Source: Methylorubrum extorquens
GTDB lineage: Bacteria; Pseudomonadota; Alphaproteobacteria; Rhizobiales; Beijerinckiaceae
Direction: 5' to 3'
Assembly (NCBI GenBank): GCA_900234795.1
Contig: LT962688.1
Span: 2,160,001 to 2,192,000, forward strand
DNA length: 32,000 bases
Position 1 is the first letter of the stretch; every line of letters begins with the position of its first letter. Below the pieces are notes generated by a model that ran no database searches, was not told the origin of the DNA, and was given only the letters and a program-made list of their open reading frames with translations. Of the stretch, positions 23,251 through 24,876 are shown in pieces. The position numbers were made by a program, and so were the translations under genes.

Positions 23251-24876
23251 ATGGCTGCCAAGGACGTGAAATTCTCGGGCGACGCGCGTGAGCGCCTGTT
23301 GCGCGGCGTCGATATTCTGGCGGATGCCGTGAAGGTGACGCTGGGGCCGAAGGGCCGCAACGTCGTGATCGAGAAGAGTTTCGGGGCGCCGCGCATCACC
23401 AAGGACGGCGTCACCGTCGCCAAGGAAATCGAGTTGGAGGACCGCTTCGAGAATCTCGGCGCCCAACTCCTGCGCGAAGTCGCCTCGAAGACCAACGATC
23501 TGGCCGGCGATGGCACCACGACCGCGACCGTGCTCGCCCAGGCGATCGTTCGCGAGGGTGCCAAGGCAGTGGCGGCAAACTTCAACCCGCTCGACTTGAA
23601 GCGCGGCATCGACCTCGCCGCCGCCGCCGCCGTGAAGGACATCACCGGACGCGCCCGCAAGGTGACCGCCTCCGACGCCATCGCTCAAGTCGGCACAATC
23701 TCCGCCAACGGCGACGCCGAGATCGGCCGCCTCATCGCCGAGGCCGTCGAGCGGGTCGGCAAGGAAGGCGTCATCACGGTGGAGGAGGCCAAGACCGCCG
23801 AGACCGAACTCGATGTCGTCGAGGGCCTGCAATTCGACCGCGGCTATCTCTCTCGCCGTACTTCGTGACGAACACGGAAAAGCTGATCGCCGAACTCGAC
23901 GATCCCTACATCCTGATCCACGAGAAGAAGCTCTCCTCGCTGCAGCCGCTGCTGCCGGTGCTGGAGGCGGTCGTCCAGTCGAGCCGTCCCCTGCTCATCA
24001 TCGCCGAGGATGTGGAGGGCGAGGCGCTCGCCACCCTCGTCGTGAACAAGCTGCGCGGCGGCCTCAAGATCGCGGCGGTGAAGGCTCCGGGCTTCGGCGA
24101 CCGTCGCAACGCGATTCTTGAGGACATCGCGATCCTCACCAACGGCCAGACCATCTCCGAGGATCTCGGGATCAAGCTCGAGAACGTGTCGCTTCCCCTG
24201 CTGGGTCAGGCCAAGCGGGTGCGCATCGACAAGGAGAGCACCACGATTGTCGACGGATCGGGGGACAGGGCGCAGATCGACGCGCGCGTCGCTCAGATCA
24301 AGGCGCAGATCGAGGAGACCAGCTCGGACTACGACCGCGAGAAGCTCCAGGAGCGCTTTGGCCAAGCTCGCGGGCGGCGTCGCGGTGATCCGCGTCGGCG
24401 GCGCGACCGAGGTCGAGGTCAAGGAGAAGAAGGACCGGGTGGACGACGCGCTCAACGCCACCCGCGCCGCGATCGAGGAAGGCATCGTTCCGGGCGGCGG
24501 CACCGCGCTCCTGCGGGCCAAGGCCGCCGTATCAGCGCTCAAGAGCGAGAATGCCGATGTGAAGGCTGGCATCAACATCGTGCTCAAGGCGCTCGAAGCG
24601 CCGATCCGGCAGATCGCGGCCAATGCCGGGGTCGAGGGCTCGATCGTCGTGTCGAAGGTGATCGAGAACGGCTCGGAGACCTTCGGATTCGACGCCCAGA
24701 CCGAGACCTACGTCGACCTGATCGAGGCCGGCATCGTCGATCCGGCCAAGGTTGTGCGCACGGCACTGCAGGACGCGGCCTCGGTCGCCGGCCTGCTGGT
24801 GACGACGGAGGCGTTGATCGCCGAGCGGCCGAAGGAGAAGGCGCCGCCACTGCCACCCGGCGGGCCCGACTTCTGA
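23251..24876 (+). pseudogene. groEL: Chaperonin GroEL paralogue interrupted by two frameshifts (as assembled)
   Basis: Three track ORFs (23251-23868, 23865-24884, 24118-24876) each carry consecutive GroEL sequence in frames 1, 3 and 1. Junction 1: GGC TAT CTC TCT CGC CGT reads GYLSRRTS* instead of [10 protein letters not shown], and removing one CT from CTCTCTC (23848-23854) restores it. Junction 2: GAG CGC TTT GGC CAA reads ERFGQ instead of ERLAKLAGG, and removing one T from TTT (24357-24359) restores it. Conserved motifs are otherwise intact ([39 protein letters not shown]). Confidence 0.85.

Follow-up and report, generated by a model that had tools for sequence, protein, structure and literature searches.

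Two small insertions interrupt the second groEL gene in the deposited Methylorubrum extorquens TK 0001 genome and may be consensus errors

The window analyzed here, a stretch of 32,000 nt from contig LT962688.1 of Methylorubrum extorquens TK 0001 (DSM 1337), contains a second groESL operon whose groEL gene is interrupted as deposited. Coordinates are window positions throughout unless LT962688 positions are specified (window position + 2,160,000 = LT962688 position). The order of genes at the locus, namely acyl-CoA dehydrogenase, groES, groEL, usg, 2OG oxygenase and a Cys/Met PLP enzyme, is common to many Methylorubrum genomes, and the features relevant to the interruption are as follows.

22925..23215, + strand: intact groES, 96 aa, belonging to the second groESL operon; groEL begins 35 nt downstream
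23251..23868, + strand: groEL piece 1, frame 1, 205 aa, from ATG 23251 to TGA 23866-23868
23847..23854, + strand: lesion 1, TCTCTCTC versus TCTCTC in the closest orthologues, +2 nt (TC/CT)
23852..24356, + strand: groEL piece 2, frame 3, ending in EKLQER, profile positions 204-369
24357..24359, + strand: lesion 2, TTT versus TT or CT in orthologues, +1 nt
24358..24876, + strand: groEL piece 3, frame 1 from LAKLAGG, stop at 24874-24876, profile positions 367-526
24359..24437, + strand: 79 nt shared without mismatch with the housekeeping groEL1 of related Methylorubrum (exact-match analysis and alignment)
24886..24918, + strand: GC-rich hairpin with a perfect 15-bp stem just past the groEL stop, -36.7 kcal/mol, z = -5.4
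25006..25113, no strand assigned: repeat of about 110 nt with dispersed intergenic copies; Logan contigs end in it (25009 or 25084)
26265-27288, - strand: 2OG-Fe(II) oxygenase gene, 340 aa, split by +G (GG to GGG) at 26925-26927

The groES protein scored 170 bits against the NCBIfam GroES model NF001529 (cut-off 133), and an identical protein was found in four related genomes, with groEL next in every case. The hairpin at 24886-24918 likely marks the 3' end of the operon; it has no T-tract and is consequently not reported by the terminator scan, and Rfam, promoter and terminator scans of 22600-25300 returned nothing significant. The split of groEL is itself already known, being flagged in the public annotation (PMC6595629 Supplementary Table 3) as TK0001_v2_2381, "fragment of chaperonin Hsp60 (part 1)" (LT962688 positions 2183251..2183868), TK0001_v2_2382, "protein of unknown function" (2183865..2184884), and TK0001_v2_2383, "fragment ... 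(part 2)" (2184358..2184876). An exact protein look-up found the middle product, a 339-aa frame-3 ORF, only as an NCBI/UniRef entry (SOR28984.1), and gave no exact match for the 205-aa ORF, a 252-aa ORF or the repaired 540-aa protein.

Reading-frame translation reproduced the layout described in the original prediction, which had been made from the sequence alone: GroEL sequence runs in frame 1 as far as GYLS (about 23850), continues in frame 3 to EKLQER and returns to frame 1, and the first frame terminates at TGA 23866-23868. Piece 2 sits within the 339-aa ORF (23865-24884), which has no stop before 24884 and starts with a GTG that shares bases with the TGA ending piece 1 (GTGA). The extra unit at site 1, described in that prediction as a CT within CTCTCTC (23848-23854), is equally readable as TC (23847-23848); more distant orthologues have CCTCTC at this site. 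In a TIGR02348 profile search the three pieces tiled the GroEL profile (positions 1-200, 204-369 and 367-526) with nothing absent, and each scored below the cut-off of 582.1 bits (317, 256 and 227 bits, respectively). When 3 nt were deleted, an uninterrupted 1623-nt ORF encoding 540 aa resulted, with a score of 840.5 bits over profile positions 1-526, an end-to-end alignment without gaps to Paracoccus cpn60 (PDB 1IOK), and the nucleotide-binding and catalytic GroEL motifs present in the repaired translation. The prediction's further statements, that conserved motifs are otherwise intact, that the upstream groES is intact, and that the +2 and +1 insertions total exactly 3 nt, were likewise borne out. 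This +3 sum has no functional consequence. A compensated frameshift, in which +2 and +1 together restore the frame, was considered and rejected: frame 1 stops 12 nt past site 1 (23866), leaving the frame between the two sites unreadable.

A comparison with the orthologous locus in close relatives, which the original prediction had proposed as a check, showed that the extra CT/TC and the extra T (in TTT, 24357-24359) are both insertions relative to all orthologous genes aligned (12/12), every one of which is in frame. GroEL is 540 aa long wherever a complete gene was called at this locus in Methylorubrum genomes, and likewise in 15/15 of the members listed for the corresponding 90% cluster (44 members). 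The nearest genome, CP021054 (M. zatmanii), is 99.85% identical over 12.3 kb, differing by 15 substitutions and three indels, the latter being the two groEL insertions and the +G at 26927. Within groEL, the only difference from CP021054 besides the insertions is one base (24349), where TK 0001 keeps the consensus Gln, and no substitution is specific to TK 0001 when CP021054 and Leaf121 are both considered. The repaired gene gave dN/dS values of 0.03-0.13 against its orthologues, and neither extra substitutions nor a raised dN/dS pointed to relaxed selection, implying that any inactivation of this otherwise intact gene must have been very recent.

Very recent loss is the substance of one explanation, to which we assign a real but less than even chance: both insertions would be genuine, products of replication slippage in short repeats that have cost TK 0001 its second groEL. 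The essential chaperonin would then come from the housekeeping groESL1. The dead copy would still be transcribed from its own promoter, but nothing more could be made from it than an N-terminal fragment of 205 aa and, perhaps, a 339-aa product through reinitiation at the overlapping GTGA. Such a loss sits uneasily with the strong purifying selection on the gene in all relatives, and it calls for two independent frameshifts in a single 1.6-kb gene that has acquired no substitution of its own on this lineage. Each lesion-bearing string was also searched for in JGI metagenome contigs, with 0 matches, which is weak evidence against it. Split genes are, on the other hand, common in the TK 0001 annotation, with about 4% of the features in the RNA-seq tables being fragments (138 fCDS rows versus 3,308 CDS rows), a point in favor of a real pseudogene. 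A 97.8%-identical metagenome contig, L007 (JGI 3300048850), carries an orthologous second groEL (positions 3137-4759) with a CAG>TAG nonsense change at codon 506 (Q506*), removing the last 35 residues. This nonsense codon indicates that loss of the second groEL copy can be tolerated, which favors recent loss in TK 0001 and counts against an artefact.

Multiple groESL operons occur in Rhizobiales, with one housekeeping copy and dispensable extras, as in Bradyrhizobium, Rhizobium leguminosarum (cpn60.1-3) and Sinorhizobium meliloti (groEL1-5). The prediction had suggested counting other groEL copies, and a separate housekeeping groESL1 was found in the related genomes examined, a result that fits the pseudogene explanation. 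There, the housekeeping GroEL of the group (546 aa) is encoded in a separate operon next to corA and shares 84% protein identity and 82.5% DNA identity with the copy studied here, which has no Gly-Gly-Met repeats in its C-terminal tail and is not orthologous to the CorA-linked groESL1 locus. The studied gene is therefore a second, non-housekeeping groEL, and the operon resembles the multiple groESL operons of Rhizobiales in its separate locus, its divergence from the housekeeping copy and its tail. It differs in that the TK 0001 copy is interrupted as deposited, whereas all relatives have an intact gene on which purifying selection acts.

Identity between the paralogues is unevenly distributed along the gene, reaching 96% at 24301-24450 and 89% at 23801-23950 compared with 82.5% DNA identity overall. 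The longest exact stretch between them is the 79-nt block (24359-24437), which starts at lesion 2. A 62-nt core of this block (24376-24437) was matched exactly in more than 120 alphaproteobacterial species-representative genomes at least, counting the matches listed, with carriers from different families (including Sphingopyxis, Bradyrhizobium, Bosea, Ancylobacter and Microvirga). Some second-groEL orthologues (L003, L004 and L022) have the housekeeping-type bases CGT CTG at site 2 (24350-24360), and L004 is also of the housekeeping type near site 1 (23815-23885; ATGCAA...ACCAACGCCGAGAAGATG). These sequence patterns suggest that gene conversion has acted in patches between the paralogues.

The three annotated pieces were all transcribed in one published RNA-seq comparison (PMC6595629 Table_3), with counts of 4305, 6245 and 3763, corresponding by simple arithmetic to read densities of about 7.0, 6.1 and 7.3 per nt. 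The pieces were also alike in log2 fold change (+2.36, +2.27 and +2.13, or roughly 4-5-fold up). Similar densities and fold changes indicate that the locus is transcribed as one unit, without visible polarity past the premature stop; the lack of any drop in transcript level there is a point against a pseudogene and in favor of an artefact. In the same comparison rpoH (-3.3) and ibpA (-2.95) were down, as was degP, a contrast that is a further likeness to the extra groESL operons of Rhizobiales and suggests that the second groEL is not regulated like the classical heat-shock genes.

Transcription and differential regulation of the locus, the position of both lesions in simple repeats, and their sum of +3 are circumstantial points in favor of a different possibility, namely real insertions in a gene that remains in use, either through a change of frame at both sites to give full-length GroEL or through repeats that reversibly switch a stress-regulated chaperonin on and off (phase variation). 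We consider this extremely improbable. The tracts, (TC)4 and T3, are far shorter than known contingency repeats, and the 12 aligned orthologues show neither variation in tract length nor any frameshift. Known slippery sites are of the X XXY YYZ or prfB type, and no recognizable slippery motif occurs at either site; moreover, frame 1 ends 12 nt past site 1, and two efficient events would be needed on each mRNA. The likeness to contingency loci and programmed frameshifting (prfB, dnaX) is accordingly confined to frame changes at short repeats, and differs in the short tracts, the lack of length polymorphism, of a conserved frameshift and of a slippery motif, and the need for two events. The original prediction had ranked slippage-prone on/off tracts as the least likely of its explanations, and the short tracts, the constant length in orthologues and the stop 12 nt on effectively exclude them.

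Same-strain short-read sequence was available as Logan contigs from Illumina runs ERR2849805-818, ERR2831467-573 and ERR2660579, which we take to belong to the Genoscope TK 0001 projects (PRJEB27428, PRJEB29054 and PRJEB29055) on the basis of accession ranges and sequence identity. These contigs were 100% identical to the window over 8741-23140 and identical over 25009-32000 except at 28358, such that no indel error was seen in the reference across the 21.4 kb that same-strain contigs could check. No retrievable same-strain contig covers 23141-25008, and the short-read assemblies do not cross groEL. Exact look-ups gave no match for three guessed groES C-terminal partials or for twenty guessed GroEL partials, in intact and frameshifted versions, whose ends were predicted from shared k-mer blocks. 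Short-query homology searches returned only fragments of other organisms at ≤95% identity, and same-strain fragments may be hidden within the 90% cluster of the full-length protein, so that these negatives carry no information. A look-up of a 610-aa ORF (4254-6086), intended to widen the validated region, also gave no match. Exact k-mers that discriminate between the alleles are GGCTATCTCTCGCCGTAC versus GGCTATCTCTCTCGCCGTAC and GGAGCGCTTGGCCAAG versus GGAGCGCTTTGGCCAAG.

The contigs were informative for two other differences nearby. The +G at 26927, which splits the adjacent oxygenase gene (a 251-aa "fragment" in the annotation), occurs in six independent Illumina-derived same-strain contigs and in neither CP021054 nor Leaf121; this frameshift is real. 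At 28358, the reference has C, compared with A in 6/6 same-strain short-read contigs and in both closest relatives; the change is synonymous (Leu85, CTG versus CTT) in the Cys/Met PLP enzyme gene (27290-28612), and the deposited genome most likely has a wrong base here. The two cases point in opposite directions with respect to groEL. A neighboring gene split by the same type of insertion, a two-unit run lengthened by one unit, as confirmed in Illumina assemblies, lends weight to real pseudogenization, as does the absence of indel errors from the 21.4 kb checked, and both count against an artefact, this +G being the only indel that could be tested. The base error, conversely, shows that the reference contains at least one other mistake in the same window.

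The contigs to the left of the gap end within groES, beside a stretch, 29 nt long in related genomes, that also occurs in the housekeeping groES, and from the sequences this shared stretch may be the cause of the left break. Several contig ends carry Illumina adapter, as seen in the first 18 nt of L015, the last 12 nt of L017 and the last bases of L019 (AGATCGGAAGAG / ...GCTCTTCCGATCT), meaning that some ends reflect read ends and not genome structure. The dispersed repeat at the right edge of the gap matched nothing in Rfam; its minus strand is moderately structured (z = -3). Copies with 89-94% identity lie upstream of groES in several other strains (L002, L003, L020, L026 and L027), near the equivalent of 22669-22682, and would bracket the second groESL operon. 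An inverted copy (77-81% identity) is located downstream of the housekeeping groEL (L037-L046, about 5119-5228).

Overall, we lean, by somewhat more than an even chance, towards the two groEL insertions being residual consensus errors. The second groEL is co-transcribed with its own groES and would most likely be intact in the organism, with the extra TC and the extra T representing small insertion errors left in a MinION-based consensus. Illumina polishing would have missed them because of the near-identical stretches shared with the housekeeping groEL, which make short reads difficult to position or to assemble. The errors that remain after polishing of long-read assemblies are for the most part 1-2-nt indels within short repeats and cluster where short reads map ambiguously. 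The present case resembles such Nanopore errors in its backbone, in the size and repeat context of the insertions, in the paralogue-identical blocks, and in the breaks of short-read assemblies. The TK 0001 genome was built from MinION reads, with Canu correction, smartdenovo assembly, and polishing with MiSeq reads (2x150, about 134x; PMC5824006). Further points in favor of consensus errors are that, insertions aside, the gene differs from that of the nearest relative by a single base, that both lesions fall within the only stretch uncovered by same-strain short-read contigs, and that lesion 2 lies at the left edge of the 79-nt paralogue-identical block. At exactly this second lesion, the short-read scaffold of another strain, Leaf121, has 20 N (window 24357-24371); it does not have the TC insertion at the first. 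The base error at 28358 adds to these points.

Several observations nevertheless weigh against consensus errors, and set the gene apart from typical Nanopore indels. Polishing worked over the 21.4 kb checked, and the similar indel nearby is real. Site 1 is not truly repeated: with paralogues differing by about 11% there, 150-nt reads at 134x should place uniquely, and an unpolished error at this site needs some further reason. The 1.9-kb unverified stretch contains only three strain-specific differences, compared with the dozens expected of an unpolished patch. By arithmetic, a real indel density of 1 per ~10 kb gives a probability of ~0.01 for two in 1.6 kb, which disfavors the pseudogene explanation; two uniformly distributed residual errors in the gene are even less likely than this, and become several-fold likelier if errors concentrate in paralogous sequence. 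Of the explanations offered in the original prediction, assembly error and very recent pseudogenization thus both survive, with the former considered the more probable and the latter a credible second. A 2019 resequencing paper listed no groL variant among 24 evolved isolates and omitted the 28358 difference too; differences shared with the wild type evidently went unreported, and the table is therefore uninformative on groEL. A 2024 paper on TK 0001 contains neither proteomics nor resequencing.

The question is chiefly one of data quality, and either outcome leaves knowledge of chaperonins unchanged. TK 0001, which we take to be the type strain of M. extorquens, serves as a reference and production chassis. 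If the insertions are errors, the reference wrongly splits a chaperonin gene into two fragments and adds a 339-aa "protein of unknown function" that is spurious, and other genes with paralogues may carry the same kind of error. If they are real, a redundant groEL copy has recently been lost, which is nothing unusual. Elsewhere in the window, a gene for a GGDEF-EAL protein (832-2868) lies within a stretch of 57-59% G+C (1000-3000), compared with about 70% for the rest of the window, and this region may have been acquired horizontally.
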